A stretch of 64,000 bases of DNA from Octopus vulgaris (Eukaryota), in NCBI GenBank assembly GCA_951406725.2, contig OX597815.1, positions 151,280,001 through 151,344,000 on the forward strand, written 5' to 3'. Below, in pieces: positions 21,884 through 63,555 of this stretch. Both the position numbers and the translations under genes were made by a program. How positions within the stretch are numbered: position 1 is the stretch's first letter; every line of letters begins with the position of its first letter. The notes under the pieces are model-generated. The model was not told the DNA's origin and searched no databases. It was given only the letters and a program-made list of their open reading frames with translations.

Positions 21884-23738
21884 CCAAATAGGTTCCATAA
21901 AATTCCAGATACCCAAAAATGTGAATAGAATTATGATAAAATACCAAGGAATAAATTTAGGACACAGAAACACACGTTTATGTGGTTAAGAAGTTCATTT
22001 CACAACCACGTGGCTTCGGGATCAATCTCAATGCGTGACACCTTGGACAAGTGTCTACGATAGCCTCGGATGACGAAGGTTTGAGAATAAAATGTTAAAA
22101 CATTGGTGGACGGAAACTGTATGGAAAAACTCGCCGGGGTCGTCTATAGGTGCATTTAATATGTCGCCCTGTTTAACGCTACCACCTGACGATTTGCGAA
22201 GTTAACCTTGTTACAAGCATTCTGACTAAGTTTCCAGCCTGGGAATAACTGGCTCCTATCTTCCCACCAATTTCGGAAGCTCTAAATAAAAATAAAATGG
22301 GAGGAGGGGATCATAGGTATTTCCAGTCCTCTTTAGATTAATAGATTACAAAAAGCGAAGAATGTTTGTCTACTTTTTTCTAGCAGGTCGAGCGACAACG
22401 TAGAAATGTTCTTATTAATGCGCTTGCTAATGAAGTAATCGCTGTTGTTGTTGGCAAACATGGTTTATTAAAGGACAGACTGATTCAGGTTTCGCAGACG
22501 TTTTTTACGTTTCATGTTTTAAGAAACAAAGCGAGGTGGGTACAATTTAGAACAGTGGGAGAAAGAGTTAATAAATAAATATTAGGAATACACTGTAATC
22601 CATTATTCTTATTCAATACAACACACACACACACAAATAAATGACAAAGCTTTGCGTATATCCCAAAGAAAATACCAGTGCGTTGCAGACATCATTACGT
22701 CTCAGTCCTTGTAATGTAAAAAAAAAGTGAGTACATGTATTGCTACAAATTATAATGCAAAGTAACATTTGTTTTAAAATGCAATGGCAAGAAGAAAAGA
22801 AGTAAAAAATACCTGAAATTAGTTGTAGGCCGGCAAATGGGGGGAAAAAATCTACCATTCATATATTCACATCAACAAGCTGCTATCAACAAACGTCAAT
22901 CCGGTAGCCATTATTGAATGTAAAATTTGGAATTAGCGGTAAACGAAATGCAGATTTAAGTAAAATAAATACCGTTTTATAATAATTAACCTCGTTTGTT
23001 TTTGCAATTTAAGATGATTATAATTAAAAATTTTTCTTCAATGAAATTACTAAGTACTTTTTAATGAAATTAGCATATCAATAATTTGCAACATTTAGGG
23101 GCATCCGTTACAAAATTTAAGCGAAACGAAATAATAATCTCTTCGAAACCTGTTCAACATTTAGTTTTTCCCTAATTATGTTTTTTAAAAAAAGAGCAAT
23201 GTTAATTAAATTTCTTTTAGCATGCTGAGTCTGGAGGAAAAGGCAGATCCCAAAACTCTTGCAGCCCTTCCGAGACTGGCAAGATTGAAGCTGTTAATAA
23301 CCCGTTTTATACTTTGCAAGTTAACACTGCAGTACGATATAAACAGGAAAAAATTCCACATTACTAACTCATTGAACATAAAACCCCAGAAACAGCTGTA
23401 AAGTGTTATCTGCATTTTTCACTTTTTTATTTGGACAGTTCAGCATAAACCACTATGAAGGACTACTGTGACATTAGAATATTAACTCTCATGATATGTA
23501 CCTATTTAAAAATAATTACTATGAACTCCGACTTTCTTGTAGAACTTGATACTGTTTACAACTGCCTGTCCATTTTTACTATGTGTGTGTATATGTGTGT
23601 ACTATGAGCTTCTTTTAGTCTCTATACAAGTCCACTTGCAAGGCTTTAGTTGCTATGGGGCTACAGTATAAGACACTTGTCAAGGTGCTATGCAGTGGAA
23701 CTGAACCCAGAACCATGTGGTTGGGAAGCAAACTTCTT

Positions 23739-25183
23739 TACTTCTTTTAAATTGCCATAAAGGCATTACATAGAGGGGTCACTACAACATATGTGGAGAC
23801 ATATAACAATTAAAATTAAAATATGATGCTATGAACGACACATGAAAAGCATTAAAATCAAAATATTAAAATAATGACACATGAATGGTAAATGAGAATA
23901 TGAAAAGTGTTACCCCACACTAAGTAACACTACTTGCCATCTCTGAGTCCTGAGTCCTCTGTAGTCTTTGATCTAATTTTTTGTTTACCATTTTCCTCAT
24001 CGCTGAGTGACAACACTCTCTCCTCCATGTACACGTAACCTTTTTCACCGTGAAAGGGGGTCTTGTAAATTTTGTAGTGTCTGTTCTTTCTTCTTCTTTT
24101 TTTCCTGTGGAGAGAGGGGGTGGGTGGGTTTGGTGTCTGTATGGGGAGGGTGGGTTTGAGTGGTCTTGGGTGGGATGGTGTTGGTCTGGGGTCCCATATC
24201 ACACTGATTGTTCTTCCTCTTCTTTCTCTTTTTCCTTTTATTCTCTGTCACTGTCCATTCATCCTCCTTGTTCCTTTCATCTATCTGTACTTCTTCCTTT
24301 TTCTCCTCCATCTCCACCACCACTTCTACTCTTGTTTTCCTCTGCAGAGGGCAGTGCATTCTAATGTGGCCCTTTTGGCCACATTTAAAACATCGTGGGA
24401 TTCTTCCCACTACCCACACTCTCAACACAATCTCTCCCAACGTCACTGTCTCCACCAAACTCTCCAATTGTCTCTCCTCTGCCCGTATAATGAGGTCCAG
24501 TGTTTTTCCTCTCCATCATCCATTCTCCATTTCTGTAACTTGGAGGACAGCCACCTCCTCACTTCCAACGAGGACGGCTGTGGCAACCCAAGCCACTTCT
24601 ATATCAGGTGGAATTCCTTCTACCCTCACCTTAGAAGTCCTTCTTCCAAGGTACGTGGGCAGAAGTACTACTTCCTCCATTTTTACAGTTGCAGTCGCCA
24701 GCCTCTTTACCTCATCTGCTGTCCTAAACTGGACAACCACCATTCCATATCCATTTCCTTTCGCTATGTACGTCACTTCCTTCGAAAGCCCCTTCAATGC
24801 TACTTTTTTTTTTACTTTTTCCATCTCCATCCACTCCACCTTCCTACTCTCCACTGAGTACACCTTGTAGGTAATGGTCTTCTTTTCCATATTTACCATA
24901 ACTCTTTCAGAGGTAATAACTTTATGTTGCTTTCTGTGTCATCTTACTCAGCTCCTTCAGTCTGGCTAGGTCCACCTCCCTTTTCTTCACCTCTGCAGCC
25001 TCAGAAAAACTCTTTACTCTTTCCAAATGCTCATCCATTCTATTTACTGCCTTAATGAGCTCCTCCTCTGCTGAGGATGACTCAGACTTGTCTTTACCGG
25101 TATAACACCCGCTGCCAAGCAACACAAAAAATTCCATTCGACTCATCAAAAATCAACACAGCGAATAGACCGATGCAGGCGAT
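23739..25183 (-). mobile_element. ORF1-only (HAL1-like / half-Tx1) non-autonomous retroelement, copy 1, inserted in a family A SINE
   Basis: 15-bp TSD ggaagcaaacttctt (23724-23738 and 25184-25198). Frameshifted ORF1 (ORFs 24922-25149, 24516-24899, 24045-24467, 23930-24202) with zinc knuckle CFKCGQKGHIRMHC and basic tracts. No RT between the TSDs. Confidence 0.85.
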
Positions 25184-25531
25184 GGAAGCAAACTTCTTAC
25201 CACACAGCTACACACACACATAATATGTGCCACTGTGGAGAATGGACGTTAAATGATATGATGATGATATACATATATACATATATGGTAGTGAGGATTG
25301 ACCTGCAAGACTCCAATGCCACTGCTATGTAGAAAGCACACATGGTGGTGCCACATATATGCACCCTGCACATTCTATAAAGTGGTTGGCATTGGGAAGG
25401 CCATCCAGCCATAGAAACCATGCCAAATCAGATTGGAGTTTGGTGCAGCCTCCAGCTTGCCAGCCCTGGTCAAACCATCCAACCCATGCTAGCATGGACA
25501 ATGGATGTTAAATGACGGTGATGATGATATA

Positions 25532-25582
<51 letters not shown>

Positions 25583-26080
25583 TTACACATCTTTTCACAC
25601 ATGCCACCGGCACAAGCAAGGTCGTTGCCAGTACCGCTTGACTGGCCTCCGTGCCGGTGGCACATAAAAAGCACCCACTACACTCTCAGAGTGGTTGGCG
25701 TTAGGAAGAGCATCCAGCTGTAGAAACTCTGCCAGATCAGATTGGAGCCTGGTGCAGCCATCTGGTTCACCAGCCCTCGGTCAAAATCATCCAACCAATG
25801 CTAGCATGGAAAGCAGACGTTAAACGATGATGATGATATATAAATATATATTTTACAATTATATACATAATTATAACATATGTAGTGTGTTCATTCTCAG
25901 AGAATTTATGGTGGTAATAATATCTTTTGATGTCTATTTTTCAGTGTGTGGTGAGGCGCAAGTCAAGCCCTTGTTATAATTATGTATATAATTATAAAAT
26001 ATTTGTAAAATTTTAACTATGAGGTTTTATTTCTGCACTGACCACCTGGTAAAAAATCATTAATGATTTTTACCCTTAAT

Positions 26081-26154
26081 TATGTATGTATGTATGTATG
26101 TATGTATGTATGTATGTATGTATGTATGTATGTATGTATGTATGTATGTATGTA

Positions 26155-26203
<49 letters not shown>

Positions 26204-26205
26204 AT
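26081..26205. repeat. (TATG)n/(TG)n microsatellite
   Basis: Directly visible. Confidence 0.95.
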
Positions 26206-27983
26206 ATGTATAAAAATTAATAGATATTCTTTTACTTGTTTCAGTCATTTGACTGTGGCCATGCTAGAGCACCTCACACACACACACATGTATGTATGTG
26301 AGTATCTTTAGTATACCCCTCCTTTAATCAAGTATGATTCTGTTGTATTTATTAACATCTCTTCTCCCGGGTGTATGCAGTGACCACTTACAGCTCTCTT
26401 AATATCAATAGTTTTGTATTTCTATCACGAAAATTTGAATTGTTCTTACAAAAAGTTTCAAAAAAAAAGTCTTATTATCTTGTCTCTCTCAATAAGATTT
26501 GCATTTCACTTGCTCATGGTATTCCCGTATATTCATACTTCCACCACCTACACTAGGAATTTCCCTTTCTCCTGTCCTCCCATACTCCTTGCTTATACTA
26601 GCATCCTATCAATGATGATATAAAAAGAGCAGAGCAGTCCCGCATGATATTATAAATATTAATGATTTAAGAATACCAATAATTCATTCTATACTTACTA
26701 ATAATAGTTGTAAGCTATACCTTAGTGGTTAGACACAGGAAGTGTGAAAAGTGAATGAATGATGATAAATTTAATGTGAAAACAGACAGACATAAAGCTT
26801 TCTCTTATAGGCACAAGAGCTGAAATTTTGTGGGAGGGCGCTATTTTATTACATTGATCCCCAGTGCTTGACTGGTGCTTATTTCATTGACTCTGAAAGA
26901 CAAAGTCAACTTCAACAGAATTTGAACTTAGAATATAAAGATGGACGGAATGCTGTTAAGCATTTTTCCAAGCATGCTAGCAATTCTGTCAGCTCATTGT
27001 CTTATAGAACAGGCATTATAATAAACCTTTTTAGGCAGAAGGCCTAAAATTATGTGGGAGGGGGCTATTTGATTACCTTGATGCCAGTGCTCGACTGGTA
27101 CTTATCAACCCTAAAAGGATAAAAGACACAGTCACCCTTAGTGGGATTTGAACCCAGAATGTAAAGACAGACAAAATGCTGCAAAGTATTTTGTCTGACA
27201 TGCTAACAATCCTGGCAGCTTGCCACAGGACAAACATAATAATTCTACTTTTGGCACAATGTCTGAAATTTGGGACTGGTGGCGGTTTATTTGGGGCTAG
27301 TCGATAATATCAATCCCAGTGCTCGACCGATAGTTATTTTATTGACCCTGAAACAAACAGACACAAATACATACAAACATACATCATCATCATCATCATC
27401 ATCATCATTGTTTAACGTCTGCTTTCCATGCTAGCATGGGTTGGATGATTTAACTGAGGTCTGGCAAACCAGATGGCTGCACCAGGCTCCAATCTGATCT
27501 GGCAGAGTTTCTACAGCTGGATGCCCTTCCTAACGCCAACCACTCCAAGAGTGTAGTGGTGCTTTTATGTGCCACCAACACGAAGGCTAGTCAGGTAGTA
27601 CTGGCAGTGGCCACACACAAATAGTGTTTTTTACGTGCCACCTGCACTGGCAATGACCTTGCTTGAATGTTTTTTTCATGTGCCAGTAAGGCGATGCTGG
27701 TAATGATCAACACAAATGGTGCTTTTTACATGTTATCAGCACGGAAGACAGTAAATGCTCTGGCAACAATCATCCTTGGATGGTACTTTTAGCGCTCCAC
27801 TAGCACGGATGCCAGTCATTGAATTTATATACATATGACAGGCTTCTTTCAGTTTCCATCTAACAAATCCACTCACAAGGCTTTGGTCGGCCCAAGGCTA
27901 TAGTAGAAGACACTTGCTCCAGGTGCCAGCAGTGGGACTGAACCCAGGGCCATGTGGTTGGTAAGCAAGCTACTTACCACACA

Positions 27984-28165
27984 ATAACATCGAAAAATAC
28001 CTTAGGAATGAGAACCCAGGTTTGAAATTTCCCCAAGACACCTGATGAAGGCTGGAGAGTACATCAGCTGAAACATTGTGCTAACAACAAACAAGATGAG
28101 GACAAATATCTGTCAAATGTAAATAATGTACAGAATTCCTCATCTCTCGAGTATAGAACTGTATA
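27984..28165 (+). mobile_element. Penelope-like pLTR fragment with degenerate minimal hammerhead (28038-28081)
   Basis: acac-CTGATGA-aggctgg..tcagct-GAAA-catt-gtgc. The same sequence forms the inverted pair at 35590-36165. Confidence 0.6.
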
Positions 28166-31625: not shown

Positions 31626-32225
31626 TTCAGCAGCTGATAAAATTTTACACACACATGAATCCCATTAACACTTTAAACATGAGGTATCAGGATTAATCTG
31701 GCAATCATTTTTAAAGTTTCCGTCGACGTAATTTAAGTGATTTATCGAGTTTTGCAACGTAGAGATGCAATTCACATTAAGAATAATAGTTCAGTACGTA
31801 TTTAATGTACAGATTATCTAATTCGAAATGCTTTTGTAGCGAGGGAAAACATTACACAATGTTTCTAATATTTTTCGTTCCAGCTTTAGATGTATACTTT
31901 TTTTTAATTCTCAGAGTGAAAGTTTTTAAAAAATGGTCCAAAACAAAAAGAAAGAGAAAAAGTGGTGTTGGTAAACAGTAAACAGATTGCAAATAAAATT
32001 GTTATTTCGTATTCATAAAAATGTTCCTTTTTATAATTTAACTTTATTAAATGTAAAAGTATTTTTCGTTTCGGATTCAAAATCTGTCTCCATTTTTACA
32101 AACAACTTCAGTAAGTTGTTCCTGTGTTCAATTGTCTAACAGATACTTATACCATTTCTTCGTAAAAAAAAAAAAAGGACTCTTGCCAAAATCTTTGGCA
32201 ACACCACCATGTGAATGGCTTTAAA

Positions 32226-32918
32226 ATGGGATTTGCGAGATTAATTGGTAACTTAATTCATATTTTAGTCATTGTAAATGTATTTTGCTTCGTCATCACT
32301 TATATTCCTTCCACACTCGGGGAAAGTATCAATCATGTTTGGGGTCTAACTTTCAAACCGCTTTATGTGATAATCCGACAGATGTTTGTGGAATTATTCC
32401 AGGACCATTACCAAGATTTTCTGAGAGTCGTCGACACTTTAGGCTGCGGTCATTTCCTTCCTGTCAGCTTCATCGGTTATTTAATGTTCATATGTGATTA
32501 CATTGTTACATCTGTTTGTATGTTTATAAAGTGTTTTTATAAATGGATCACGTTACAAAAAATCCTTTTCTCAATGCCTATATATTTAATACTTACTTGG
32601 ATCTGTTCTACTGTGGAGAATTTCTTCCGTACATCATCTGCTAATGTTACCCCAAACCGTTCCAACCAACAAAATACCAGGAACAATGGTGATATATATA
32701 ACAACCTACTACAATACCAAAGTATTAACCACAATAGGGACAATCTTTCTCTAAAGTGCGTGTTGTGTTTTCAAAACGACCGAAGTGCTCTTTTTCTTCC
32801 CTGTGGACATGTCTGCTTATGTTTGAAATGTGCCAAGACTGTTATAAATGCTAATCACGTCTGTATTGTATGTCGAACGCCTATCACATCTCTCAATGAA
32901 ATATGTATCTGTTATTAA
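32226..32918 (+). CDS. Transmembrane RING-finger E3 ligase, RNF26-like (C3HC5-type RING), 230 aa, intronless CDS
   Basis: Intact ORF from the first in-frame ATG. Several hydrophobic N-terminal segments and a polar linker lead to a C-terminal CVLC..LFLPCGHVCLCLKC..CIVCR. This architecture matches RNF26; orthology is not established. Confidence 0.85.
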   Translation: MGFARLIGNLIHILVIVNVFCFVITYIPSTLGESINHVWGLTFKPLYVIIRQMFVELFQDHYQDFLRVVDTLGCGHFLPVSFIGYLMFICDYIVTSVCMFIKCFYKWITLQKILFSMPIYLILTWICSTVENFFRTSSANVTPNRSNQQNTRNNGDIYNNLLQYQSINHNRDNLSLKCVLCFQNDRSALFLPCGHVCLCLKCAKTVINANHVCIVCRTPITSLNEICICY

Positions 32919-39009: not shown

Positions 39010-40165
39010 GCACACTCACATTACACATCCAACAAGGCCTACTAGCTTCATTACACATCCAACAAAGCCTACTAGCATGTCCTTAACAGTCACAACCCTT
39101 GTTTCACTGCTGTGTAGCATGGTTGCCCAGTCTACTTGTATTGTAGTAGCTATGCTCTCGGAGCATCTACCCCAACTACTAACTTGGTCGCCTTGGTAAC
39201 AAACTATAAACTACTTTTAGTCTTCCTCCTTGGCATGTGATGGAATCTATTTTCTGTACATTTTTGGTGTTTATTGTACTAGTGTGCCTTCCACACATAA
39301 AAACTATCTTCCTCTGATATTGCTGCACTTCTTATGTGTCCATAACTTACAACAGGTACATCTTATAGAGTTTCTACCTGCACCTTTTCTACAGACTGAG
39401 CAGGGCTATCAACCTGAAGAGATTTGTGATTTGTCAGCCTTCCTACTTGCTATGACTTTGGTTTTTGCTTGGTTAACTCTAAGGCCCTTTGATCCTAGAC
39501 TTTATTTCCACACCTGAAACTTCTTTTCTAGTTCTGGTAGTGATTCAGCTATTAGAGCTAGGTTATCGGCATAAAGGAGCTCCTGGGAGCAGCCTGTCTT
39601 GAATTCCTCTGTTATTGCATGGAGGTCTATGATGAACAAGAGGAGGCTGATGATTGATCCTTGGTGAACCCTTACTTCTACCCTGAATTCTTTGCTATAC
39701 TTGTTGCCAACCCTCACCTTATTGACAGCATCCCTGTACATGGCTTGTACAGTTCTTACCAACCACTCATCTATCCCAAGTTTTCACACTGACCTCCAGA
39801 TAAGGGATTAGGGGACCCTGTCAAAGGCTTTCTCCATGTCAACAAAAGCTAGGTACAGAGGTTTATCTTTGGCTAGGTATTTCTCCTGCAGCTGTCTCAC
39901 CAGAAATATAGCATCAGTGGTGCTTCTCCCTGGCACAAAACCAAACTGCATCTCATCTAAACTAACTCTCTCCCTAATTAGTTGGGCTATGACCTTCTCC
40001 CTGACTTTCATCACCTGATCCAACAATCTGATACTTCTGTAATTATTTCTATCTAAGGCATCACCTGTACCTTTGTAGCAGTTGACTACAGTGCTGCTAC
40101 ACTAGCTTTTGGGGATGACTTCTTTGTGTATCACCTGGTTAACTATACAGGTAACTATAACCTAC
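39010..40165 (-). mobile_element. Degenerate RTE LINE reverse transcriptase fragment
   Basis: QFGFVPGRSTTDAIF..FVDMEKAFDRVP; HQGS..YADNLAL. Confidence 0.9.
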
Positions 40166-40487: not shown

Positions 40488-41758
40488 CAGGGTGGGGAAG
40501 CAAAATTTACAATGAATGTTAAGTTGTTTTTTCAAAGCAGGCACTGAGTCAATTATTTTGAAACGTAGCAGATATTGATGTCATAATCATACCTAACACT
40601 ATTATCCTTACCTTTACAGAAACTTTTGCCCATATGAGTAATCAGGAAAGCAAGTGTCAAAGAGTGTGTAATTTGCTGAATGCACTCGTCACACCAAAGG
40701 AGATTTCAAGAATAGTTGGAGTGTCCATAAAGACTGTTTATAATGTAAAGAATAGAATGACTATGAGCAAAACTATTACGAGGAAGTCTGGAAGTGGAGG
40801 AATCAACAAAAAACGTACCAAAGCTTTTATCAAAGCTCTCAAATCCAAAATCCTAAAGGATCCAACCAAATCCATGAGAAAAATGGCAATTGAACTTGAG
40901 GTAGACAACAAGACATTTAGAAATTCAGTAAAATATGATTTGAGGTTAAAATCTTACACAAGAACATCAAAACGCTTGTTGACAACAGCTATGAAGGAAA
41001 AGAGATTGGAAAGGTGCAAGAAAATTATTACATGGTTCAGATGGAAAGATCTTCACTGTTGATGCTGTTCTGAACTGCAGAAATGACAGATTTATCGCAA
41101 AATCAACAGCTGAGATTATGGGGACATTCAAAACAAAACATCCTGCTCAGGTTATGGCTTTTGGTTTTGTGGCTTCTGATGGAAAGAAAATGCCTATAAA
41201 ATTCTACAAAACTAATGAAAAGATCAATGTTAATACTTACTACAAGACGCTGAGATACCGGGTATTGTCATGGCTTAAAGCAAACTACCCAGATGATAAT
41301 TATGTATGGACACAGGATGGTGCTCCAGGATGGTGCTCCAGCCTACAGAGCTAGAAAAATACAAGATTTCTGCAAATCCAACTTAAGCAATTTTTTGGAA
41401 TCATGTTTATGGCCGCCTTCTAGCCCAGATCTAAACTCTCTGGATTATGCTATTTGGGGCGTTTTAGAACATGCTACCAATAGAACATCACACAGCAATG
41501 TCGACTGTCTTAAAGATACTATTAAAGAAGAATGGGAGAAGTTGTCTCCTGAATATTTGAGGAAGACTTGTGCAAGTTTCAGGGAGTGTGTGAATGTAGT
41601 TATTGAGAAAGAAGGAGGACACATAGAATAAAAATATTTTCTCTTACGTAAATTTTCTTGTGGCCAATAAATTCTCATGACTTTCAATAAACTAATTGGT
41701 CATACACTGTCTTTCAATCCCTGGCTCAAAATATTGTAAATTTTACTTCCCCTCCCTG
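40488..41758 (+). mobile_element. Tc1/mariner DNA transposon, DD37D (maT) family, pseudogenised
   Basis: 26-bp TIRs (cagggtggggaagcaaaatttacaat, 24/26 match) and TA TSD. HTH in ORF 40634-41062; QDGAP-x-WPPSSPDLNSLDY with 37 residues between the 2nd and 3rd D. A 13-bp duplication at 41313-41338 frameshifts it. Confidence 0.92.
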
Positions 41759-45303: not shown

Positions 45304-46399
45304 ATATATATATAATACAAAGTAATAGGTATTTTTAAATCCAGGCACTTGTAAGCACTCAGTGGCTATGCAAACTTATGTCAAGCTATAAGAAACTGTT
45401 AAATCCAAATAGAATGTACATCTGCTGTAATACATTGAATAATTTCAAAAAATTCCAAAGTATATTAAAAGACATTAACAAGAATAAAGAATAACATATA
45501 TTTAATACAGGATAACATTATACAAAGACCAACACATGTTTCTATTACTTCAGTATTTTTAGATATAATATATGGTACAATATACAAATCAGTCCTTATT
45601 AGATTGATTGTGAAATCCAATATACCCAAAACTTCTACAAACACAATGTTTTCAAGGCAACCTACACAGACATGAATCTAATAAGAACTGAGAATTTAGC
45701 AACAATACAGGGAAATCACTAATTTCAAGAAGAAAATGGAATGCAGAAAAATGGAAAGCTAAGATGGAATATGACATGCTAAGAAAAGTTAGTTTGGTAT
45801 TTAAACTGGCCATAACCGGCCAAAAGTATTCTGCCTGTTTTATGTTCAAACTGGCCAGATCTGGTCTCTCAGATCAACCCTACAATATCGTTTTAAAAAT
45901 TAACTTCTCCCTCATTGAAATCTCATAGCTACAAGATAATGCATGATTAATTCAAAACAACGTGGATAAAAAAAGCATTAATTTTGGCAGAATAATGCGA
46001 ACACTAAAGGGTTAAAGTTAAGATGACCTCTGTAGAAAGCGTAGGAATATATAAATAAAAATGCAAAAAAGCTACCTCAGTGAGTGTAGGTAGCTGGTTG
46101 TTTAGGTCAGCTAAAAATACATTTGAAAAAGATCACTGATGTCAATAAAATGATAATATTTTTATAATGTTATAACAAAAAAATGACACAGTGAATCAAG
46201 AATGTAATGTTGAATGTCTCTCAGGAAGTAAAGAGACATGTTCACTTAAATAATGAGTACAAAATCAATAATAGAAAGGCTAAAACATGGGATTGGAGAA
46301 TTGGAGGAAAAAATTCAATTATGTAAGCATTTTTACGTCTCCTTTTTCCAAGAACAATGTGATTTATTGACAAACGGTCACTGGTGTTGGAGAGCATAA

Positions 46400-47900
46400 A
46401 TGTTAAAGTTAGCTGACATAGAGCCAGCCGGACATTGGAAAAGAGTTACCTGTATCATGATGATTCATGCTGGGTGTGAAAATGCTGACATTATGACTGC
46501 TGTTCAATGCTATGTGAACATTGTAAAGGTTGTAATTGTGACATGGATAGCTGCAATGGAGACTCTGAAGCCATGGCCAGCAGGCATTCTTACTGTGTCT
46601 ACATGCAGGATTCATTCAACAACTGATGAACAGAGCCTTGGGTTCAGTTCAGAGCTCTATGTGAAGCTGCTGGAGACAGTGGTCAAACCCTAGCTGGAAA
46701 GGGTTGCTGCTGGAAAGCCATGTTGTGGTTGCAGGTTTTGGTTCCTTTTATTTGTATAATTTGTCATAAGGACGTTACACAGATGTAGCTGCAGGCTGGA
46801 CATTACATTAATGAGATGAAATGATAAACAAAATTATGATATTAATGAGAGGAGCAAAAGACGCCCACTGATCTTCTGCTTCTCTAAAACATTGTTCTTT
46901 TTTTTCCAAAACAAAAAACAAAACGAGGTATTAAACCTCTTACCTCAGTTCTACAATTACTGGACTTAATAGTACATTACAAATTGAGGTGCTGAGCCTC
47001 TTACAAGTAATAAACATTTAAGCACTAAAACCTCTTCATCCTTCCTCCCCAAACAGGCCATATGCATCCCGCAGGCAATGCTCCAACTCCAGGTCGGGGT
47101 TCCAGAAGGTGAACCTAAACTGGTCCTTCGGGAATGAGTCCAACACCCTGAATATATCGACTTCTGATATGACCTCTGTAGTCACCTGCAGAGGCCAATC
47201 CGGGTCTTCAGTCCACAGCATGGGCTCCTTCCCATGGCCCTCTAGTTTCCTTAAGAAACTCTGTATTGCCCTTCCCTTATGGAAGAAGATAAGAAAATCG
47301 TCTCTCATCGCTCTGGCAGTGGCCAGAGTTTTTTCTCTTGGTGGCACACTTCTCACCAGGACATGCCGGCAGTGTATCACCAACCACCGGCAATGTCCCA
47401 TTGTTTATATTTTTCTTTTTTCTTTTTCTTCCCTTTGCTATGGGAGGATGTAGTACCTCTGCTTTATCTGGAGGATCTTCCCCTGCTCCCACAGCTTTAG
47501 GGTCGTTCGGTGGGCAACCATTGTTGACCACCTTTTTTTTTTTTGCTTTCTTTTGAGGAGGTTTTGGCTTGTTGCCATACTTCCAGAAAGATTCAGAAGT
47601 GGTTGTTGGAGAACTTCTATGACTTCACCAGCCCCAATTTCTAGTCTGCTAATTCCTCTGATTGTAATCCCATACATTACTATGCATCAGGTGCAGTTGA
47701 GAAAGACTGCTCTGCTGACAACAAAATGCTTGAGCTGGTGGCCATGATGAAGGACGTTTTTGAAGATCTTCCCAGAAACACGGTGAGGAATGCATGTGCC
47801 AGGTTCCAGGGCCATCTTGAGGCTATGGTGGAAGCTGGGAGTGGATACTTAGAGGAAACAGTTATCCCCCAGCTATAATCTAGTTGATATTTTTTTGATA
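46400..47900 (+). mobile_element. Degenerate, internally deleted maT-like (DD37D) transposon split by a retroelement insertion
   Basis: YVKLLETVVKP*LE.. before 46747. After 47573 it resumes as CHTSRKIQKWLLENFYDFTSPNF*..DCNPIHYYA..VRNACARFQGHLEAMVEAGSGYLE. Confidence 0.7.
46748..47558 (-). mobile_element. 5'-truncated ORF1-only retroelement, copy 3 (same family as 61692-63522)
   Basis: Shares NNGCPP.DP, KG.AI.SF, P.WP.QV and 3' UTR cttctctaaaacattgttcttt with copy 2. Degenerate 15-bp TSD aggttttggttcctt / aggttttggcttgtt. Confidence 0.8.
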
Positions 47901-51057: not shown

Positions 51058-52324
51058 AAGGGATTGGACAAAATAATGGAAACACCTTAAAATTTCAAAC
51101 AAATTTATTTTAATATTGGGTAGGATTGCCTTTGGCCATAATTGCAGCTTGAATTCTACAAGGTATGGACTTGTACAAATTTTGAATTGTTTCCAGAGAA
51201 AATTTGTCCATGCTTCAGCTAAAACAGTCTCCAGTTCTTGTAGAGATGATGGTGGAGGATCTCAACTCCTAACTTGTTTTTCTAAAATGCACCATAAATG
51301 TTCAATAATATTGAGATCTGGGGACTGTGGTGGCCAAATAAGATGTTCAACTTCACTAGAATGTTCCTCGTGCCATTTAGTAATAACTTTAGCTGTGTGA
51401 ATTGGTACATTATCATCCTGAAAGATTGTGTTTCCCTCCAGAAACAGTTCCACAACCATAGGATGAATTTGATCAGATAAAATGCTTAAATAGTCTTGAC
51501 TATTAATTCTGCCATGAAGGGAAACCATTGAGCCAGTGGATTTCCAAGATATAGCCCCCACAAGATCATCACAGATCCTCCTCCATGTTTAACAGGTGGA
51601 AGAAGGCAATCTGGGTCAAATGCTTCTTTTGGCTGTCTCTACATATATACTTGGCTGGTGGTTGGAAATACAGTAAAAGATGACTCGTCCGAGAAAATAA
51701 CATTCTTCCACTGCTCTAGGGATCAATTCTGTAGGTTTTTACTCCACTCTAAACGCATTGCAACATTTGTTTTTGAAAGTAGTGGTTTTCTGTTTGCAGC
51801 CCTCCTGTGAAATCCAACTTTGTGCAGCTCCTGGCGAACAGTTATTGTGGAAACTGGGTTCTCGAGGTGGTCATTAAGCTTTGCAGTAGTTTTGGGAGTT
51901 GTACTTTTGTGATCCTTTCTAACAATTCCTGTAAGAGTCCAATGGTCCCTATCTGAAAGTTTTGGCTTTCTTCTGGAGTTTTGTTTTGATGAGGATGTTT
52001 TACATCTTTCTCAAAGGCTGTCATTACTTTTGAGACACTTCTTGATACACCAAAGATTTTGGCTGTTTTCATTATGCTAGTGCCTGCCATATGAGCACTA
52101 ACAATTTGACCACTGTGAAAGTCCGATAGATCTGTAATTTTAATGAATTTTAATTACCCTTTTCTGATGATATCTGAAAAGAAACAGCAATTTCAGCAAA
52201 ACATATTAAGCAACACTAATAATAAATAAAAAAACATAAAAATAAACAAGCTTTTGACGATTTTATAGACATTTCAAAATTATGATGCTATGTTAGGTGT
52301 TTCCATTATTTTGTCCAACCCCTG
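51058..52324 (-). mobile_element. Tc1-like transposon with DD36E spacing, pseudogenised
   Basis: 30-bp TIRs (caggggttggacaaaataatggaaacacct, 28/30 match) and TA TSD. FSDES..FQDDNVPIH..WPPQSPDLNIIEHLW, with stops and frameshifts. Confidence 0.9.
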
Positions 52325-52394: not shown

Positions 52395-54183
52395 CAGCCA
52401 CGATCGGATGGTGCTTTTTATGTGCCACCGGCACGGGGGCCAGGCGAGGTGAGGCTGGCAATGGCCACGAACAGATGGTGCTTTTTACGTGCCACCGGCA
52501 CTGGTAACTCAGCTGCAATTTCCATTGATTGATTTCGATTCTGATTCTCACTTGCCTCAATGGGTCTTCACAAGTAGAGTTTTGTGTTCCAAGAAGAGAA
52601 GGTATGCATAAGTGGGCTGGCTACATCCCATGTAGAAGGTCACGGGTTATGGTCTCACTTGTCCTGCCGGGTCTTCTCGCGCACAGCATACTTCCAGAGG
52701 TCTCGGTCTCTAGTCATTTCCTTGGTGAGACCTAAAGTTCGAAGGTCGTGCTTCACCACCTCGTCCCAGGTTTTCCTGGGTCTGCCTCTTCCACAGGTTC
52801 CCTCAACCGCTAGGGTGTGGCACTTTTTCACACAACTATCTTCATCCATTCTCACCACATGTCCATACCAGTGCAAATGTCTCTCTTGCACACCACATCT
52901 GATGCTTCTTAGGTCCAGCTTTTCTCTCAAGGTACTTACATTCTGTCGAGTATGAATACTGACATTACACATCCATCAGAGCATACTGGCTTCATTTCTT
53001 GCGAGCTTATGCATATCCTCAGCAATCACAGCCCATGTTTCACTGCCATGTAGCATGGCTGTTCGTACACACGTGTTATACAGTCTGACTTTTACTCTGA
53101 GCGAGAGGCCTTTTGTCACCAGCAGAGGTAAGAGCTCTCTGAATTTTGCCCAAGCTATTCTTACTCTAGCAGTTACACTTTCAGCACACCCGCCCCGGCT
53201 GCTGACTTGGTCACCTAGGTAACGGAAGCTATCAACTATTTCTAGTTTTTCTCCCAGAAGTTGGTCTCAGAGCATTTTCAGTGTTTATTGTTCCTGAGCA
53301 TCTGCCACATACAAAAACCATCTTCCTAGTTAGCCTTCCTTTGACATTGCTGCACCTCTTATGTGTCCATAGCTTACACTTCGTGCATCTTATAGAGTTT
53401 CTACCTACACCTTTTCTACAGATCGAGCAGGGCCATCTACCTGAAGGCGTTTGTGATTTGTCTACTTGCCTACTTATTAGGACTTTGGTTTTAGCTAGAT
53501 TGACTCTAAGGCCCTTCGATTCTAATCCTTGCTTCCACACCTGAAACTTCTCCTCCAGTTCTGATAGTGAATCAGCAATTAGAGCAAGGTCATCAGTATA
53601 GAGGAGCTCCCAAGGGCATCCTGTCTTGAATTCCTCCGTTATTGCTTGGAGGACTATGATAAATAGGAGGGGGCTGAGGACTGAGCCTTGGTGGACCCCT
53701 ACCTCTACCCGGAATTCTTCACTGTACTCGTTGCCAACCCTACCTCACTAGCAGCGTCCCTGTACATGGCTCGCACAGCCCTCACTAACCATTCATCTAT
53801 CCCTAGTTTCCTCATTGACCACCAGATAAGGGATCGGGGGACCCTGTCGAAGGCTTTCTCCAAGTCAACAAAAGCCAGGTACAGGGGCTTATCTTTGGCT
53901 AGGTATTTCTCCTGCAGCTGCCTTACCAGGAATATAGCATCAGTGGTATTTTTCCCTGGCACGAACCCAAACTGCATCTCATCTAAACTAACTCTCTCTC
54001 TAATTAGTTGGGCTATGACCCTCTCCGTAACCTTCATTACCTGATCCAATAGCTTGATACCTCTGTAATTATTTGTATCTAGGGCGTCACCTTTACCTTT
54101 GTAGCAGTTGACTATTATGCTGCTACACCAGTCATTGGGTATGACTCCTTCGTGTATCACCTGATTAACTATACGGGTGACTA
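52395..54183 (-). mobile_element. 5'-truncated RTE LINE: RT, PHD-like finger and C-terminus
   Basis: ORFs 53705-54160, 53232-53540 and 52655-52972: NYRGIKLL, FVDLEKAFD, QGS, YTDD, C4HC3 finger, WYGHV. Few frameshifts. Confidence 0.95.
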
Positions 54184-54271
54184 GGCTATATATATATATA
54201 CATACAGGTATGTCTGGCTTTCCAATTTATGATTCTTTTCATTCTTAGTATATATGTATATATATATGTAC

Positions 54272-54317
<46 letters not shown>

Positions 54318-54489: not shown

Positions 54490-54540
<51 letters not shown>

Positions 54541-54627
54541 TTATAAAATGAGATAGGGGTTGAAAATTCAACCCACCATGGGATTTAAGTATGCTTTATT
54601 GATTTAAGTATGTTTCTCCATTCTCTA

Positions 54628-55050
<423 letters not shown>

Positions 55051-55627: not shown

Positions 55628-55666
<39 letters not shown>

Positions 55667-55729
55667 CACACATACATATACATATACATATATATATACA
55701 TAGAGAAGTAACTAAAAAATGTTGATGAT

Positions 55730-56155: not shown

Positions 56156-56919
56156 TTGTTGATGGATGGTGGTAATGAATTTAAATTTTGCTCTTTTTAT
56201 TCTGAGTTCAAATCTTACTGGGATTAATTTTGCATGGCCTGCTAGGCATTCATGTGCTTTCAGGTTTGGTAACAATGTGTAGCACTTTAAGCAGGTTCTT
56301 CATCTTGGGTTGACCATACTCTTTTACTCTTTTACTCTTTTACTTGTTTCAGTTATTTGACTGTGGCCTTGCTAGAGCACCGCCGGTAGTCAAGCAAATC
56401 GACCCCAGGACTTATTCTTTGTAAGCCCAGTACTTATTCTATCAGTCTCTTTTGCCGAACTGCTAAGTTACGGGGGACATAAACACACCAGTATCGGTTG
56501 TCAAGTGATGTTGGGGGACAAACACAGACACACAAACATATATATACATATATACAATGGGCTTCTTTCAGTTTCTCTTTATCAAATCCACTCACAAGGC
56601 TTTGGTTGGCCCGAGGCTATAGTAGAAGACACTTGCCCAAGGTGCCACACAGTGCGACTGAACCTGGAACCATGTGGTTGGTAAGCAAGCTACTTACCAC
56701 ACAGCCATTCCTGCGCCATATGTATATTTTTATTAATATTTTGCAGAAGCAATTGGGTGACTCACGGGCCACGAATTTCATGTGTTGGCACTTATCAACA
56801 CATGAAACTGTCAGCCCTTGAGTCACTCTGTTGCTACTGCTAAATATTAATAAAAATACACATATACTCATATTCTGAGTTCTATGTTTCCTGTTTGCAT
56901 CAACAGACTTGCATATTTA

Positions 56920-58152
56920 TTAGGGCGCTCAGAAACTAATTGCATTTCACCAGAAAGGATATAAAAATGAATGTAAACTATGTTTGTCTGAATAGTTTTA
57001 AAGAATAGTTTTAAAGAACAACTGCAGCCCAACAGGAAAGTAACCTTCTTATATGACATTCAAAGAAATCTATTTCTTTTCCTGAAAAAAGTCTGAAAGA
57101 CTGTTTCCCACTTCCTCTCTGTTTCTGAATGCTCTGCCTCTTATAAAATGTTCTAGTGATTGGAACAGATGAAAATCTGTAGGTGCTATATCAGGTGAGT
57201 ATGGAGGATGTTTAAGAACTTCCCATCCTAATGATCTTATTTTTTCTTGGGTTTGTTTTGAATAGTGTGGCTGTGCATTGTCATGCTGGAGAATAACACC
57301 TTTACCATTTACCAAAGCTGGCCACTATTGACGTAATTTTTTATTTACCTGATCAAGTTGTTGGCGATAGATATCTTAATTGATGATCCTTCCATGTTCC
57401 AGTGGCTCATAATGAACAATACCTTTCATATTCCACCAAACACAGAGCAAGGATTTTTGTGGATGAAGTTCTGGTTTTGGTGTTGACACTGGCCTCTCAT
57501 TACATAATAACCATTGACTTTTTCATATTCTATTGTGATGCAAAATCCATTTTTCATCACCTATAATAATGCGCTGCAGGTTGTTATTCTTGGTTAGAAG
57601 ACTGCTGCAGATAGTGGAATGCTGTGTTTGATTCTCAAGCATAATCTCATGTGGAACCCAAATTCCCTCTTTGCATGTTTTCTCAGTTTACTTGAAATGT
57701 TTATGAATAGTTGAACATGGCACATTAAATTTCTGGTGCTTTGACATGGAACCAATACAATAATCTCATTCAAAAGGCTGTCATTTACAGTGGGTTGTCT
57801 TCTAGAGCAAATTTTGTTGGATGCATCACAATTGCCATCTTTAAACCTTTTAAATCACAGCTGACATGTATGAGCTTTCACTATATCCGGATACACTTCA
57901 CAAATATTTTTCATTGCTTTTGTAGTGGTACTTTTCTTTCAAAACTTATACAGTAAGCAATGGTGAATATATTGTTTCATAAAGTTCTTTTCCTCCATGA
58001 GGTTAATTACTGAAAGAACTACCAATGACATGTTGTGTGACAGAAAGGATGATATACTATTTCTAGACGTTTGACCTTGGCTCTGATGTGTTTGGTTGGT
58101 TCATATTTCATAGTGGTAGAAAAAATGCAATTAATTTCTGAACACACCCTAA
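56920..58152 (-). mobile_element. mariner (DD34D) transposon, pseudogenised
   Basis: TIRs ttagggcgctcagaaactaattgcattt / aaatgcaattaatttctgaacacaccctaa and TA TSD. WVPHEI, GDEKW, HDNAQPH..HPPYSPDIAPTDFHLF. Confidence 0.9.
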
Positions 58153-58932
58153 TATCTATCATTATCATCATTTAACGTCCGTTTCCCATGCTGGCATGGG
58201 TTGGACAGTTCGACTAGGGTCTGGGAAGTCAGGAGATCAGGCCCCAATCTGATCTGATAGTGTTTCTGCAGCTGGACGACCTTCCTAACGCCAAGTACTC
58301 CAAGAGTGTATTGGGTTCTTTTTACGTGCCACCGGCACAGGGGGCAGAGGAGCTGGCATCGACCATGATCAGATGGTGCTTTTTATGTGCCACCAGCATG
58401 GAAGCCAGTCATGGTGGCACTGGCATCGGCCATGTTCAGATGGTGCTTTTTACATGCCACCAGCACGAGAGTCACAACTGCAATTTCTATTTGATTGTAA
58501 TTTGATTAGATTTGATTTTGATATTGATGTTGATATATGTGACTCAAAAGTTCACCTCAAGCACGGCATGTTGCCCTATGATCCAAGGTACTTTTGAGTG
58601 GGCTGGTTATACGATGCTGGTGTATGTTACAGCCGGGTCTTCTAAGTCACAGCATACCTCCAGAGGTCTTAGTCTTTTGTCATTGCCTCTGTGAGGGCCA
58701 ATGTTCAAAGGTCATGCTTCACCACCTCATCCAATGTCTTCCTGGGTCTCCCTCTACCCTGGATTCCTTTCACTGTTTGGGAGTGACACTTCTTCACACA
58801 GCTCTCCTCGTCCATCTGCAGTACATGACCATACCAACACAAAGTCACTCTCTCTATATACAAGTTAAATAAAATGAGACAACAAAGCCAAGGCAGTGTG
58901 AAATTTCTAAGACATTTATAAAGAGAAAGGTA

Positions 58933-58980
58933 GTCTTACAGCTGTTTCAAGGATATAAAAGATATCCCATCATCAGAGAC
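58933..58980 (-). ncRNA. Minimal type I hammerhead ribozyme (Penelope-type)
   Basis: Minus strand: gtct-CTGATGA-t-gggatat(ctttt)atatcct-t-GAAA-cagctg-TA-agac. Confidence 0.75.
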
Positions 58981-59075
58981 GATATGAGCGAGTTAAACAG
59001 AAGAAAATAGTATAGTTTAATATAAGAAGTTATCTTGGATGTTACAGTTGGATGTTATATATATATATGTGTGTG

Positions 59076-59415
59076 AAGGCGCATGGCTCAGTGGTTAGAG
59101 CGTCGATCTTACGATCGTGAAGTTGTGAGCTCGAATCCCGGACCGGGCTGCGTGTTGTGTTCTCGAGCAAGGCACTTTATTTTCGCGTTGCTCCAGTTCA
59201 CTCAGCTGTAGAAATGAGTTGCGACGTCACTGGTGCCAAGCTGTATCGACCTCTGTCTTTCCCTTGGATAACACTGGTGGCATGGAGAGGGGAGGCTGGT
59301 ATGCATGGGCGACTGCTGGAACTTCCATAAACAACCTTGCCCAGACTTGTGTCTAGGAGGGTAACTTTCTAGGTGCAATCCCATGGTCATTCATGACCGA
59401 AGGGGGTCTTTACGC
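59076..59415 (+). mobile_element. tRNA-derived SINE
   Basis: A box tggctcagtgg, B box gctcgaatccc, followed by a conserved SINE body gagcaaggcacttta...cactcagctgtagaaatg. Confidence 0.75.
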
Positions 59416-59463
59416 TTTATATATATATATGTATGTATATGTATATATGTGTGTTTGTGTGTG

Positions 59464-59550
<87 letters not shown>

Positions 59551-59659
59551 ACACACACACACACACATGCAGACATACATATTTATATAGGCAAATTTGT
59601 TGTTGAAAATGCACCTAAATTTGAAAAACTTGTAATTGTTTTGAAATAAATTTATTTAC

Positions 59660-60040
59660 ATATATACTAAACTAGTTTCTGCAATATTTTTTGTTTATCT
59701 ATGGTAAAAAAGGAAGGGTAGTTATTTGTGGCTGTATTCCAATGTGAACTGGATACTGCAGTTAATGCTGTCGATTAAGTTTTAAAATTTTGAGTGTTGT
59801 TTAAGGTTGTGTGGCCACAGAATGAAGCAATTATCCAGGTAGTGTTTCCAGTTGGTGAGTTAGTGTCTCCAAATTTCAGTCTAACATGCTCATATATTTG
59901 GACTTCCAAGTATGCCATGACAAGGTTGGCAAAAGTAGGGGCTTCCTTCATTCCCATCGCTGTGCCTGATTACTGTCTATAAGTGTTCTCGCTGAAGTTG
60001 AAGAAGTTGTTCCGTAGGATGAATTTTAACGTTGCTTTTA
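59660..60040 (-). mobile_element. Penelope-like element reverse transcriptase remnant
   Basis: LKFILRNNFFNFSENTYRQ*SGTAMGMKEAPTFANLVMAYLE, followed by a frameshifted (Y)LDNCFILW motif. This is a PLE-type RT. Confidence 0.75.
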
Positions 60041-60439
60041 ACCTACCACCATTGAAACATGTTAGAATTGTTAAGGTTGTTACCTCTTCTGGGTGGGGGG
60101 AGTGAGGAAGCATTGTATATGAAAGTGTTTGGGGTATTGTAAATATAAGCATTATGAGCCTAGTGGGTGAAGCATTATTGATGCTGCAGATATAAATGTG
60201 TAAATAAATAAATAAAAAAAGTAAGTGGGTTACTATCTGGTTCAGTTAGTCTAGAGATGGGGGGGGGGAGAGAAAGGAGAGAGAGGAAGGGCAAATGGGT
60301 GCTTGGTGAGAGAAAAAGATTTCCAGTAAGACAGAGAGAGAGAGAGAGAGAGATTTCCAGTAAGAGTGAGAGAGAAAGAGATTTCTGGTATTGGAGGTGG
60401 GGTGGGAAAGGGTGGGCGCAACCACCGATACTAAAGGTT

Positions 60440-60975
60440 ACCACCGGCACTAAAAGTCATTTTAAGGGCTAGAGCAAATAAGGAGTTATTTTAGAGAAAA
60501 GCACGAAATAAGTATATACATGGCGCCAAGAAACAAGGTTGGTCATTGTAGGGTTAGAACAAACAAAAAAGGATTATTTTAGAGAATAGATGAGTTTGAA
60601 TGAATGAAGGGATTAAAAAACAAGAGAGATTCTTAGCTTAGATGTGAATACTTTCAAGTTTCATCAGCCACCGATACTAAAGGTCATTTTATGGGCTAGA
60701 GTAAATAAGGAGTTATTTTAGAGAAAAGTACGAAATAAGCATATACATGGCGCCAAGAAACAAGGTTGGTCATTGTAGGGTCAGGACAAACAATAAAGGA
60801 TTATTTTTAGAGAATAGATGAGTTTAAATGAATAAGGGGATTAAAAAACAAGAGAGATTCTTAGCTTAGCTGTGAATATTTTCAAGTTTCATCGGCCACC
60901 AATACTAAAGGTCATTTTAAGAGCTAGAGCAAATAAGAAGGAGTTATTTTAGAGAAAAGTATGAAATAAGTATAT
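60440..60975. repeat. Tandem repeat, ~228-bp unit, ~2.4 copies
   Basis: Units start ccacc.atactaaa.gtcatttta at about 60440, 60668 and 60896. Confidence 0.9.
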
Positions 60976-61297
60976 CTCTAAGCTTTGTCAGAGAGTTTAG
61001 AAAGTTCATAAGGTTAAGTTATAAATATAAATACATACATATATACATACTTTTACATATACACACATATATATATAAATATATATAATCACATATACAT
61101 ATATTAAAATGTATATGCTTATGTATATGTATATGCATACAAAGTAATCAATTATTATTATTATTATTAGGTGTAAACTCTCTGACAAAGCCTAGAGACA
61201 CACCTAAGTACCTTAATCTTATCTACAAAATACTTCAGTTTACTGGCAGGATAAAAGTAGGATGGGGTACTATGGTCTCTTGGCTGAAACAGCTCTT

Positions 61298-63555
61298 TTA
61301 CTCTTTACTCTTTTACTTGTTTCAGTCATTTGACTGTGGCCATGCTGGAGCACCGCTTTTAGTTGAGCAAATCGACCCCAGGACTTATTCTTTGTAAGCC
61401 TAGTACTTATTTTATCGGTCTCTTTTGCTGAACCATGAAGTTACGGGGACATAAACATACCAGCATCTGTTGTGAAGCGATGTTGGGGTGGACAAATAGA
61501 CACACAAACATAGACACACACACACAATCATATATATATATACATATATACGAGGTGCTTCTTTCAGTTTCTGTCTACCAAATCCACTCACAAGGCTTTG
61601 GTCGGCCCAAGGCTATAGTAGAAGATACTTGCCCAAGGTGCCATGCAGTGGGACTGAACCCGGAACCATGTGGTTAGTAAGCAAGCTACTTTTATTAATT
61701 TCATTTGCCATAGTGGCAGTACAGAGACGGGTAGCTTTGCAGGCTGGACAAGACATTGATAAGGTGACTGATAATAATACAAGATGATAAGGATGGGAGA
61801 AGACAGAAAGTGCCCGCTGACCCTCTACTTCTCTAAAACATTGTTCTTTAAAAACACATATATAGTGGTATTGACCCTCTTACAATATAAAATACAATAT
61901 ATTTGGACTCAAAAGTCCACACAAATACAAAACATAATTTATACACAAATTAGAGGTGATGAACCCCTACAATTCTTCCCCGAGCAGTTTTCTTGTGACT
62001 TTCAAGCATTCCTGCAACCACAATCTGGGGCTCCGAAAAAGAATTCTATAATTCTCGTTTTCACATGAGTCAATTATAAGATCACAGTACTTTCTTTCCA
62101 GCACCAGGACAGCCACCTGCGAAGGCCACTCTGGGCTGTCAATACAAGTCGAGTCCCTCAGGATCCGACTATCCATATCATTCTCCACGAAACTGTCAAT
62201 AGCCCCTCCCTTGAGATAGAAGAACATAAATTCTTCACCACTTTCACTGGGAGGGGCCTCAACTCCCTCGCTCGATGGCACCCCACTGACGAGGTTATCT
62301 TCTTCCCCCTCCCCCTCCGGTGGCACACATCCCATCGAAGGGGTTTCAGGACATGTTGTCACCGGCAATGCCCTGTTTTTCTTTTTTCTCTTCTTTTTTC
62401 CTGTTATGACGTGAGGGTGGAATTCCTCCGACATCTCCGGAGGACCTTACCGCCCCGCCCGCCATGTCAGGATCCATCGGTGGGCAACCATTGTTGTCCA
62501 CCTTCTTTCTTTTCTTCCCCTTTGTTTTCGAGGAGGTTACCCCCTCCTCAACTTTTTCCTCCACTGGGGGAGCAGGGGACGCCTTTTCAATTAACTGTTC
62601 CAGGACTCTTGCCTGGTCCTGGTGACAGTTCTTTTTTATATGGCCCAATTCCAGGCACAGGTGACACTTAGGGGGACGTCCCTCAACCATCACCGGGTAC
62701 CTTGAACTGGCCATTGTTAAAAAATCTGGTAAAACCAGATCATTGGCTGATTGGGTCCATAGGGTCAAAATTGCTTTTGACCCGACCCAATCAACTGCAG
62801 GCAACATTTTTACATTTAAGAGCCTGACAGGGCTGCCACCCAGGCCCCGACGAATAGTGTCTTCTATCCATTTGGCCTCTATACCGGGTGGCAGCCCACC
62901 ATCCAGGCTCTTGTCAACTTTCTACTGCCATAAGTAGGGAGAAACAAAATTTTTTCCCCTTCCAAAGGCATGCTCGCAAAATCATGAGCCTCTGCAAGGG
63001 TCTCAAAAAGTACACACACAGTTCCATACTTCACACCCCTCTGGATAAAGCTAGCAGTTGACAGATAGTCTGCCAACTCCTTAATTTCTTCCTCAGAGAA
63101 GGCCTTGATGGTGTCAAGGGCCCTGGAATAGGTCCTTAACACCACCATTCTCCCCGTATAATTTTTCAACCATTCTTTGGGGGCCAAAATTTTCCACTCC
63201 ATAGCGGATTTCACAGATGCCATGTTGATAGCCAAAACAAAAATAAAAATCCACAAAGAAAAATCAAAATATTCAAATGAAAGTCTATAAAGAAACTCAA
63301 AAAAGATCAGAAAGACAGACTCGAGAAGAAAGAGTGAAGGAAGATAATCCCAAGTGGGGACCCTTGTTCGAAAAAATAATAACCTTACGAACAACAGACT
63401 TCACTAAGCTCCCAAAAAACAAATGCTTTACCTATGTTTGTGCTTCAAATGTTCAATTTTTCACTTATGATGTGACTTCCACCACGACGAAAAACAATGC
63501 AACAACTTGGTAGCAGTCATCGAGCTACTTACCACACACCCACTCCTATGCCTGT
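61298..63555 (-). mobile_element. Family A SINE split in two (61298-61691 and 63523-63555) by the ORF1-only element
   Basis: The SINE sequence resumes exactly after the duplicated agctactt. Confidence 0.85.
61692..63522 (-). mobile_element. ORF1-only (HAL1-like / half-Tx1) non-autonomous retroelement, copy 2
   Basis: 8-bp TSD agctactt (61684-61691 and 63523-63530). ~300-nt 5' UTR, then ORF1 from ATG 63223 to 61967 in three frameshifted pieces with CHLCLELGHIKKNC, then a ~275-nt 3' UTR ending AATAA(A). No ORF2. Confidence 0.88.

Follow-up and report, generated by a model that had tools for sequence, protein, structure and literature searches.

A 64,000-nucleotide stretch of the Octopus vulgaris genome, hereafter the window (G000:C2:151280001-151344000, in a 2.8-Gb assembly of 227 contigs), carries three inserted retroelements without long terminal repeats (non-LTR), E1, E2 and E3, that encode only the first open reading frame (ORF1) of a long interspersed element (LINE). 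Two of the three lie at the identical base in the tRNA-like head of a short interspersed element (SINE). Comparison with relatives elsewhere in the genome makes it very probable that a LINE lineage of the L1 group, together with the ORF1-only elements derived from it, has landed many times at this one SINE base, where the apurinic/apyrimidinic-type endonuclease (APE) of a full-length partner LINE would nick the target and its reverse transcriptase (RT) would copy the RNAs of the ORF1-only elements in trans.

E1 (23739..25183, minus strand) is a full-length ORF1-only element of 1,445 bp, and its relatives elsewhere in the genome are ~1.45 kb long. Its broken ORF1 retains a CCHC knuckle (zf-CCHC, E=0.0018, below the curated cut-off) and is 33% identical to the ORF1 of the partner LINE (E=6e-23). 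The element is bounded by an exact 15-bp target-site duplication (TSD), with the original target on the 3′ side at 23724..23738 (plus strand; predicted first-strand nick after 23738) and the second copy on the 5′ side at 25184..25198 (plus strand), followed by ACCACAC. At one position the two copies agree with each other but not with the letter normal for the SINE, and the duplication was therefore copied from its own locus. The SINE split by E1 continues as a 5′ head at 25199..25212 (minus strand; A-box-like motif 25200-25210) and a body at 23659..23738 (minus strand; B-box-like motif 23697-23708). E2 (61692..63522, minus strand) is a full-length ORF1-only element of 1,831 bp with a broken ORF1 at ~61967-63223. 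Its TSD is an exact 8-bp repeat, with the 3′ copy at 61684..61691 (plus strand; predicted nick after 61691) and the 5′ copy at 63523..63530 (plus strand), again followed by ACCACAC, and the split SINE has its head at 63531..63553 (minus strand; A-box-like motif 63532-63542) and its body at 61555..61691 (minus strand; B-box-like motif 61650-61661).

In both cases element and SINE run in the same orientation, with the SINE head on the 5′ side of the element and the SINE body on the 3′ side. The earlier first-pass annotation had placed E1 and E2 at the identical SINE base, between the A and B boxes, and this was confirmed, with GCTWCTT^ACCAC, on the antisense strand of the SINE, at both junctions. 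It had also called them divergent families, and indeed no DNA match was found between E1 and E2, only protein similarity in ORF1 (tblastx, 26-39%). E3 (46748..47558, minus strand) is not a further, independent type but a 5′-truncated relative of E2 (71-73% DNA identity) at a site outside the SINE, where it interrupts a decayed transposase frame (~46300-47890, plus strand) that is Tc1/mariner-like by its motif. Its duplication is imperfect: the 3′ copy at 46733..46747 (plus strand) matches the 5′ copy at 47559..47573 (plus strand) in 12/15 positions, nine of them in an exact run. All three claimed junctions thus exist, but the restored E3 site, given as CCTT^GCCATAC, follows from the left repeat copy alone, and the right copy reads TGTT^GCCATAC. 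A search for ORF2 remnants inside E1, E2 and E3 found none in any of them, and their ORF1 remnants are related to the ORF1 of the partner LINE or to one another.

The genome was searched with the last 209-222 bases of each element, without SINE sequence. The three 3′-end searches returned 1,436, 229 and 1,392 candidates, of which 40 were scored and the best 30 fetched each time, the window copy included. Among these best 30, the 3′ end lay at the same SINE base in 26/30 E1-like, 21/30 E2-like and 11/30 E3-like copies. In a further two E1-like and five E3-like loci no SINE body was scored, but the final 13 nt of the site are matched; two of those five E3-like loci form a duplicated pair that is actually off-site. 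The window contains 12 target SINE sites among 128,000 strand positions, which with a 20-nt tolerance gives a chance expectation of 0.0019 per copy. Binomial P values range from 5e-23 to 3e-67 per family and lie below 1e-22 for every family. The filled-junction pattern occurs as 612 exact matches in the genome, and the control gave 0.

The head of the target SINE is tRNA-Lys-like, with predicted A-box-like and B-box-like motifs. It aligns colinearly with tRNA-Lys(TTT) of this genome (z ~6 versus shuffles), the best match among the sampled tRNA types. Rfam and ARAGORN did not recognize the SINE head as a tRNA, and no Rfam or tRNA family was called in the window. An uninterrupted head is found at 56600..56720 (minus strand; homologous nick after 56695), one of 10 empty copies in the window. 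Genome-wide, 30,074 exact empty sites carry the GTTAG variant of the site and 36,023 belong to the other variants counted. The tRNA D-arm had been offered as an alternative target, and real tRNA genes were rejected in that role: none was present among the 196 loci inspected, the 11-nt site is absent from the sampled tRNA genes (best match with three mismatches), and a genome-wide scan confined to tRNA-Lys(TTT) genes found 0 with an element tail at the homologous base. At one locus (L202, G000:C12, ~25.267-25.270 Mb) numerous tRNA-Cys genes and variants are clustered in a span of 3 kb. E1-like loci (L031-L060) lie mostly in a GGGAAG..TTCTT SINE variant and E2-like loci (L001-L030) in a GGTAAG..TACTT variant, which may reflect age or a family-specific preference. 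A preference of the young partner family for the GTTAG variant was considered and rejected, as about half of its direct hits are there and the counts of empty sites given above mean that this is no demonstrated enrichment.

It had been proposed to look for a full-length partner that encodes APE and RT and shares the junction, and one was found among the filled sites. It is a 5.4-kb LINE, inserted at the same SINE base in the same orientation, with a zf-CCHC domain in ORF1 and Exo_endo_phos, RVT_1 and zf-RVT domains in ORF2. There was no other Pfam match, and in particular none to an RNase H or restriction-like endonuclease (RLE) domain. One copy has an unbroken ORF2 of 1,133 amino acids. Identity to the reference copy is 97-99% across 22 full-length copies, indicating a young family. 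The exact 32-nt 3′ end of the partner occurs 104 times in the genome and follows GCTACTT in 98 of these. Five of the six others were fetched; in four the insertion is again at this SINE base, a single letter of the site being different, and the fifth is off-site. Among 30 sampled copies, 26 were directly in the SINE and four were at a site regenerated 5′ of an earlier element. On-site fidelity therefore differs among families, from 37% to ~98%. Families have been called target-specific when more than 20% of their flanks are one repeat (PMC4494074, in the part available); the corresponding fractions here are 26/30, 21/30 and 11/30 for the E1-like, E2-like and E3-like copies, and 26/30 and 98/104 for the partner.

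The best solved relative of the partner is human L1 ORF2p (E=1e-66, versus E=1e-19 for R2), and its endonuclease matches the L1 endonuclease (E ~1e-12), with no other retrotransposon endonuclease among the matches listed. By the order and domains of its ORFs, its L1-closest RT and endonuclease, and its signature of target-primed reverse transcription (TPRT), the partner is assigned to the L1 group (L1/Tx1) of non-LTR retrotransposons, as a member of either Tx1 or L1. Its named protein relatives are unclassified proteins of the octopod Argonauta (50-64%, the closest), Branchiostoma, Holothuria, Paramuricea and others, with no Tx1-labeled homologue among the named matches, and no relatives with flanks were found in metagenomes. 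A look-up of expression listed no RNA holder and is given no weight as evidence. At G000:C9:2664555-2680900 (L123, L124, L150, L196) three young full-length partners stand head-to-tail in one SINE copy, each at a regenerated site. Mixed stacks, in which a young partner adjoins ORF1-only elements of other families in both orders, were seen at L145, L153, L139, L126 and L152. A 277-bp truncated young copy (L112) has no duplication and apparently lacks two target bases.

The insertions bear the marks of independent events. In 20 of 70 filled sites the SINE resumes after inserts of 49-2,040 bp, that is, after 5′ truncations of many lengths, and duplications repeat locus-specific letters at E1, L136 and L195. 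Among 20 young copies the flanking SINE body has a mean pairwise identity of 91.9%, while the last 230 nt of the element are nearly identical (171/190 pairs the same). Together, the truncations, the locus-specific duplications and the SINE flanks that diverge by ~8% beside near-identical element 3′ ends exclude both segmental duplication and comobilization with the SINE. The fixed 3′ end, the 5′ truncations and the variable TSD agree with the TPRT pattern of a fixed first nick and a variable second nick that had been put forward for these elements.

The 5′ junctions are more complex. In 24 full-length young copies the element nearly always starts with GGTTAG. The target, as read from the 3′ flank, lacks the GTTAG variant in 11 full-length young copies, and 10 of these 11 still start with GGTTAG; the exact part shared in the 11 is 6-14 nt, mostly 9-12. 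The young element therefore carries 6-8 target-like nucleotides at its own 5′ end, and apparent duplications of 15-16 bp are in consequence partly element-borne. In the E2 family, six full-length 5′ junctions were compared, and three of them have in common a G at -9 that is missing from their own targets. This suggests that this family too has a target-like, element-borne 5′ end, to which the 5′-most 7 nt of E2 itself (63516-63522) likely belong. It is also why the idea that the 8-bp E2 TSD is a decayed 15-bp one was rejected. The reported variation in TSD length (15, 8 and ~15 bp) can thus still be credited to a variable second nick, but only in part, the remainder being due to the target-like 5′ end.

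The target motif was also revised. That on-site copies all have GCTWCTT^ACCAC follows from their position in the SINE. Off-site loci were compared by a script that required TT at the end of the 3′-side copy; it could use 8 of 24 and dropped 16. These eight duplications have TT at -2/-1, C at -3 in five, A at +1 in six and C at +2 in four, with no signal further 3′ than +2 in this set, and off-site junctions read by eye are often TACTT^AC. The motif had been given as CTT^RCCAYAC. Its CTT^R core was retained, but CCAYAC is not kept outside the SINE, where sites have WCTT^R(C) without it (n=8), and CCAYAC is therefore mainly the SINE's own sequence; what the on-site copies share lies upstream, as GCTWCTT. 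On this evidence the core is read as WCTT^R(C), centered further 5′ than first proposed. The junctions did not reduce to a generic TT^R preference, nor did copies share flanks beyond the SINE, yet the off-SINE sites keep only this short core.

Seventy of the 612 filled sites, taken in order of position, were classified. ORF1 without ORF2 was present in 41, ORF2 in eight (seven scored, plus L063, where the end of ORF2 was seen on inspection), and 21 had no coding match. ORF2 was carried by 0/40 elements with an E2-type tail versus 6/6 scored coding elements with a partner-type tail, L063 being the seventh. The last ~45 nt are common to all families and form a predicted hairpin of 3-5 bp with a 3-5-nt loop, followed by a short A-rich end. 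This tail is likely the signal for trans-mobilization: tail, hairpin and target are shared by the ORF1-only elements and the partner, whose ORF2p would act on both. The ORF1-only families recur as full-length units with duplications, fixed 5′ ends and fixed length, and their ORF1 is under purifying selection. Between E2-type families, differences by codon position number 1,591 / 1,354 / 2,705, a third-position excess, and the median ratio of nonsynonymous to synonymous substitution rates (dN/dS) is 0.27, from 65 distant, non-independent pairs in a local alignment that favors conserved parts. With ORF1 only, no ORF2 remnant and movement as a unit with LINE-type ends, these elements resemble the half-L1 (HAL1) type. 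They are of independent origin rather than HAL1 proper, because their ORF1 is of the CCHC type and related to that of the local partner. A broader, three-tier formulation, in which a long-standing landing pad in the promoter of the host's most abundant SINE is shared by the LINE and an independent radiation of half-LINEs that are selected to keep ORF1 and outnumber the LINE ~5:1, with a target-mimicking 5′ end that seals insertions, is put forward tentatively, as a reading with somewhat less than an even chance of being right in full.

The following course of insertion would account for these observations. ORF2p would bind the shared ~45-nt tail with its small hairpin and nick the target after WCTT, and the freed TT-3′ end would pair with terminal A residues of the RNA and prime cDNA synthesis, in keeping with the fixed 3′ junction and single orientation. 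A second nick at a variable position gives rise to the target-derived duplication, mostly 8-14 nt where it can be distinguished. Full-length copies begin with 6-8 target-mimicking nucleotides in the young partner and possibly in E2; these could originate from transcription starting inside the duplication of a source copy, and their annealing would help to join the 5′ end. The site is regenerated at the 5′ end of the element, and later elements therefore stack in tandem. The ORF1-only elements would still need their own ORF1p, consistent with the selection on it. Each event would silence the SINE copy that it hits by separating its A and B boxes by 0.05-5.4 kb, and genes would be largely spared through the choice of a repeat that offers >66,000 exact empty sites.

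Several points weigh against this account. Both frames are unbroken in 0/22 full-length partner copies, through either decay or assembly indels, and the partner ORF1 is only ~30-35% identical to those of E1 and E2. The E1 and E2 copies are older (~76-92% identical to their relatives) and cannot have been mobilized by the young partner itself, and older ORF2-bearing relatives at the SINE site were only partly seen. The E3-like copies are much less faithful, with 13/30 off-site. Since nothing beyond WCTT^R(C) is common to the off-site targets, the near-total use of the SINE by the young family may call for more than a 7-nt motif. The endonuclease supplied in trans that the first-pass annotation envisaged gains from the same-base junctions and from the discovery of the partner, but both its nicking specificity and the mobilization in trans are inferred from sequence.

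A different source of specificity would be tethering, in which the integration complex is drawn to the RNA polymerase III (Pol III) machinery (TFIIIC/TFIIIB) or to open chromatin at the SINE head, and a loose L1-like endonuclease cuts the nearest CTT^A. Dictyostelium TRE5 and yeast Ty elements, which integrate near tRNA genes, are a model for this. The insertion site adjoins the A-box, the eight usable off-site targets keep only the short core, one E2-family copy (L029) lies at another CTT^GCC within the same SINE and one E3-family copy (L173) just outside a SINE copy, all of which would suit such a mechanism. However, real tRNA genes, the strongest Pol III sites, were not seen to be hit, many of the targets are old, mutated SINE copies, and the tandem copies (4/30 young) use a regenerated site at which several kilobases separate the A box from the B box; tethering is accordingly considered quite unlikely. 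Copying of a SINE-LINE composite as one unit, or segmental duplication, could be suggested by the target-like nucleotides at the 5′ ends of full-length copies and by an E3-family pair (L172/L175) that shares flanks. It is largely refuted already by the divergence of the flanks and the series of truncations that end in the SINE head, and with the locus-specific letters in the duplications and the presence of unrelated families at the same base it is extremely improbable.

It could also be that the ORF1-only elements are repeated ORF2-deletion products of unsampled autonomous parents, in which the low dN/dS was earned. The classification covers 70 of 612 sites, and the dependence among the dN/dS pairs and the bias of local alignment leave room for this. 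Set against it are the complete absence of ORF2 from the 40 elements with an E2-type tail, when all six scored coding elements with a partner-type tail carry it, and the recurrence of the ORF1-only families as full-length units with fixed ends and length; this explanation is judged unlikely. Repeated insertion of an L1-group LINE and its ORF1-only derivatives at one SINE base thus remains the preferred reading.

The window holds some features of other kinds. A 250-amino-acid open frame at 32166-32918 (plus strand) begins with hydrophobic stretches in its N-terminal part, carries a C3HC4 RING finger (PF13920, E=2e-14) at the C-terminal end, and is presumably a single-exon RNF26-type ubiquitin ligase. 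Further Tc1/mariner remnants lie at 40562-41631 (HTH_29, DDE_3) and ~51260-52150. Other LINE fragments with RT matches, at 52655-54226 and 39460-40116 (both minus strand), are unrelated to the SINE-targeting family.

Sequence-specific LINEs have precedents. The targets of Tx1-clade LINEs include DNA transposons, LTR elements, snRNA genes and microsatellites, all of which can be shared with non-autonomous partners, according to the accessible parts of PMC4494074 and PMC4640811. The nearest parallel is that of the crocodilian Tx1-Mar LINEs and SINEU elements (Kojima 2015, PMC4494074, as far as accessible), where an APE-type LINE likewise has a preference for a transposon of high copy number, its target is also used by non-autonomous partners, copies stack in tandem across the TSD and fidelity varies by family (90%, 23% and 13% there). 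SINEU-2B has target-derived 5′ extensions and is a precedent for the target-like 5′ end described here. The systems differ in that the Tx1-Mar target is a Mariner DNA transposon rather than a tRNA-like SINE head, and the SINEU passengers are snRNA-headed SINEs rather than ORF1-coding elements of 1.4-2 kb. Tx1L in Tx1D of Xenopus, Keno in U2 snRNA and Kibi/Koshi in microsatellites are also APE LINEs with sequence-specific insertion in multicopy DNA, for which the same portion of PMC4494074 names no SINE target. HAL1 of mammals is a non-autonomous L1-group derivative that encodes only ORF1p (PMC5753468, part of the text), as do the octopus elements; here, however, several divergent ORF1-only families outnumber their partner at one target base, and the available HAL1 text describes no target specificity. 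Dada likewise enters tRNA-type sequences in or next to their Pol III A-box, but it is a DNA transposon in real tRNA genes (PMC8869645, in the part seen), whereas the octopus elements are retroelements in a sequence specific to the SINE, which the sampled tRNA genes lack. The accessible part of a study of O. vulgaris repeats counts 13 L1-Tx1 families as recently active, and the word 'target' does not occur in it (PMC13282606), and that of PMC4758252 only cites a paper on octopus tRNA-SINEs. In the literature searched, which did not take in Repbase and several primary papers, there was no description of a LINE that targets a SINE head, of a SINE target with an ORF1-only radiation, or of such octopus elements. 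Target-specific behavior of LINEs is known; the novelty appears to lie in the use of a SINE promoter as the target, in the target-specific ORF1-only radiation and in the target-like 5′ end.

The SINE Pol III promoter represents a new class of target for APE-type sequence-specific LINEs, joined here with an independent origin of ORF1-only elements. If the account is correct, each insertion would disable a SINE promoter, in direct antagonism of LINE against SINE, and the endonuclease of the young family would be a naturally precise nickase with a short site. With hundreds of datable insertions, an unbroken ORF2 from a young family, and families whose on-site share ranges from 37% to ~98%, three open questions become testable: the target specificity of APE endonucleases, the joining of LINE 5′ ends, and the reason that non-autonomous elements keep ORF1. 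For the annotation of cephalopod repeats, such nests split SINEs and hide ORF1-only families.

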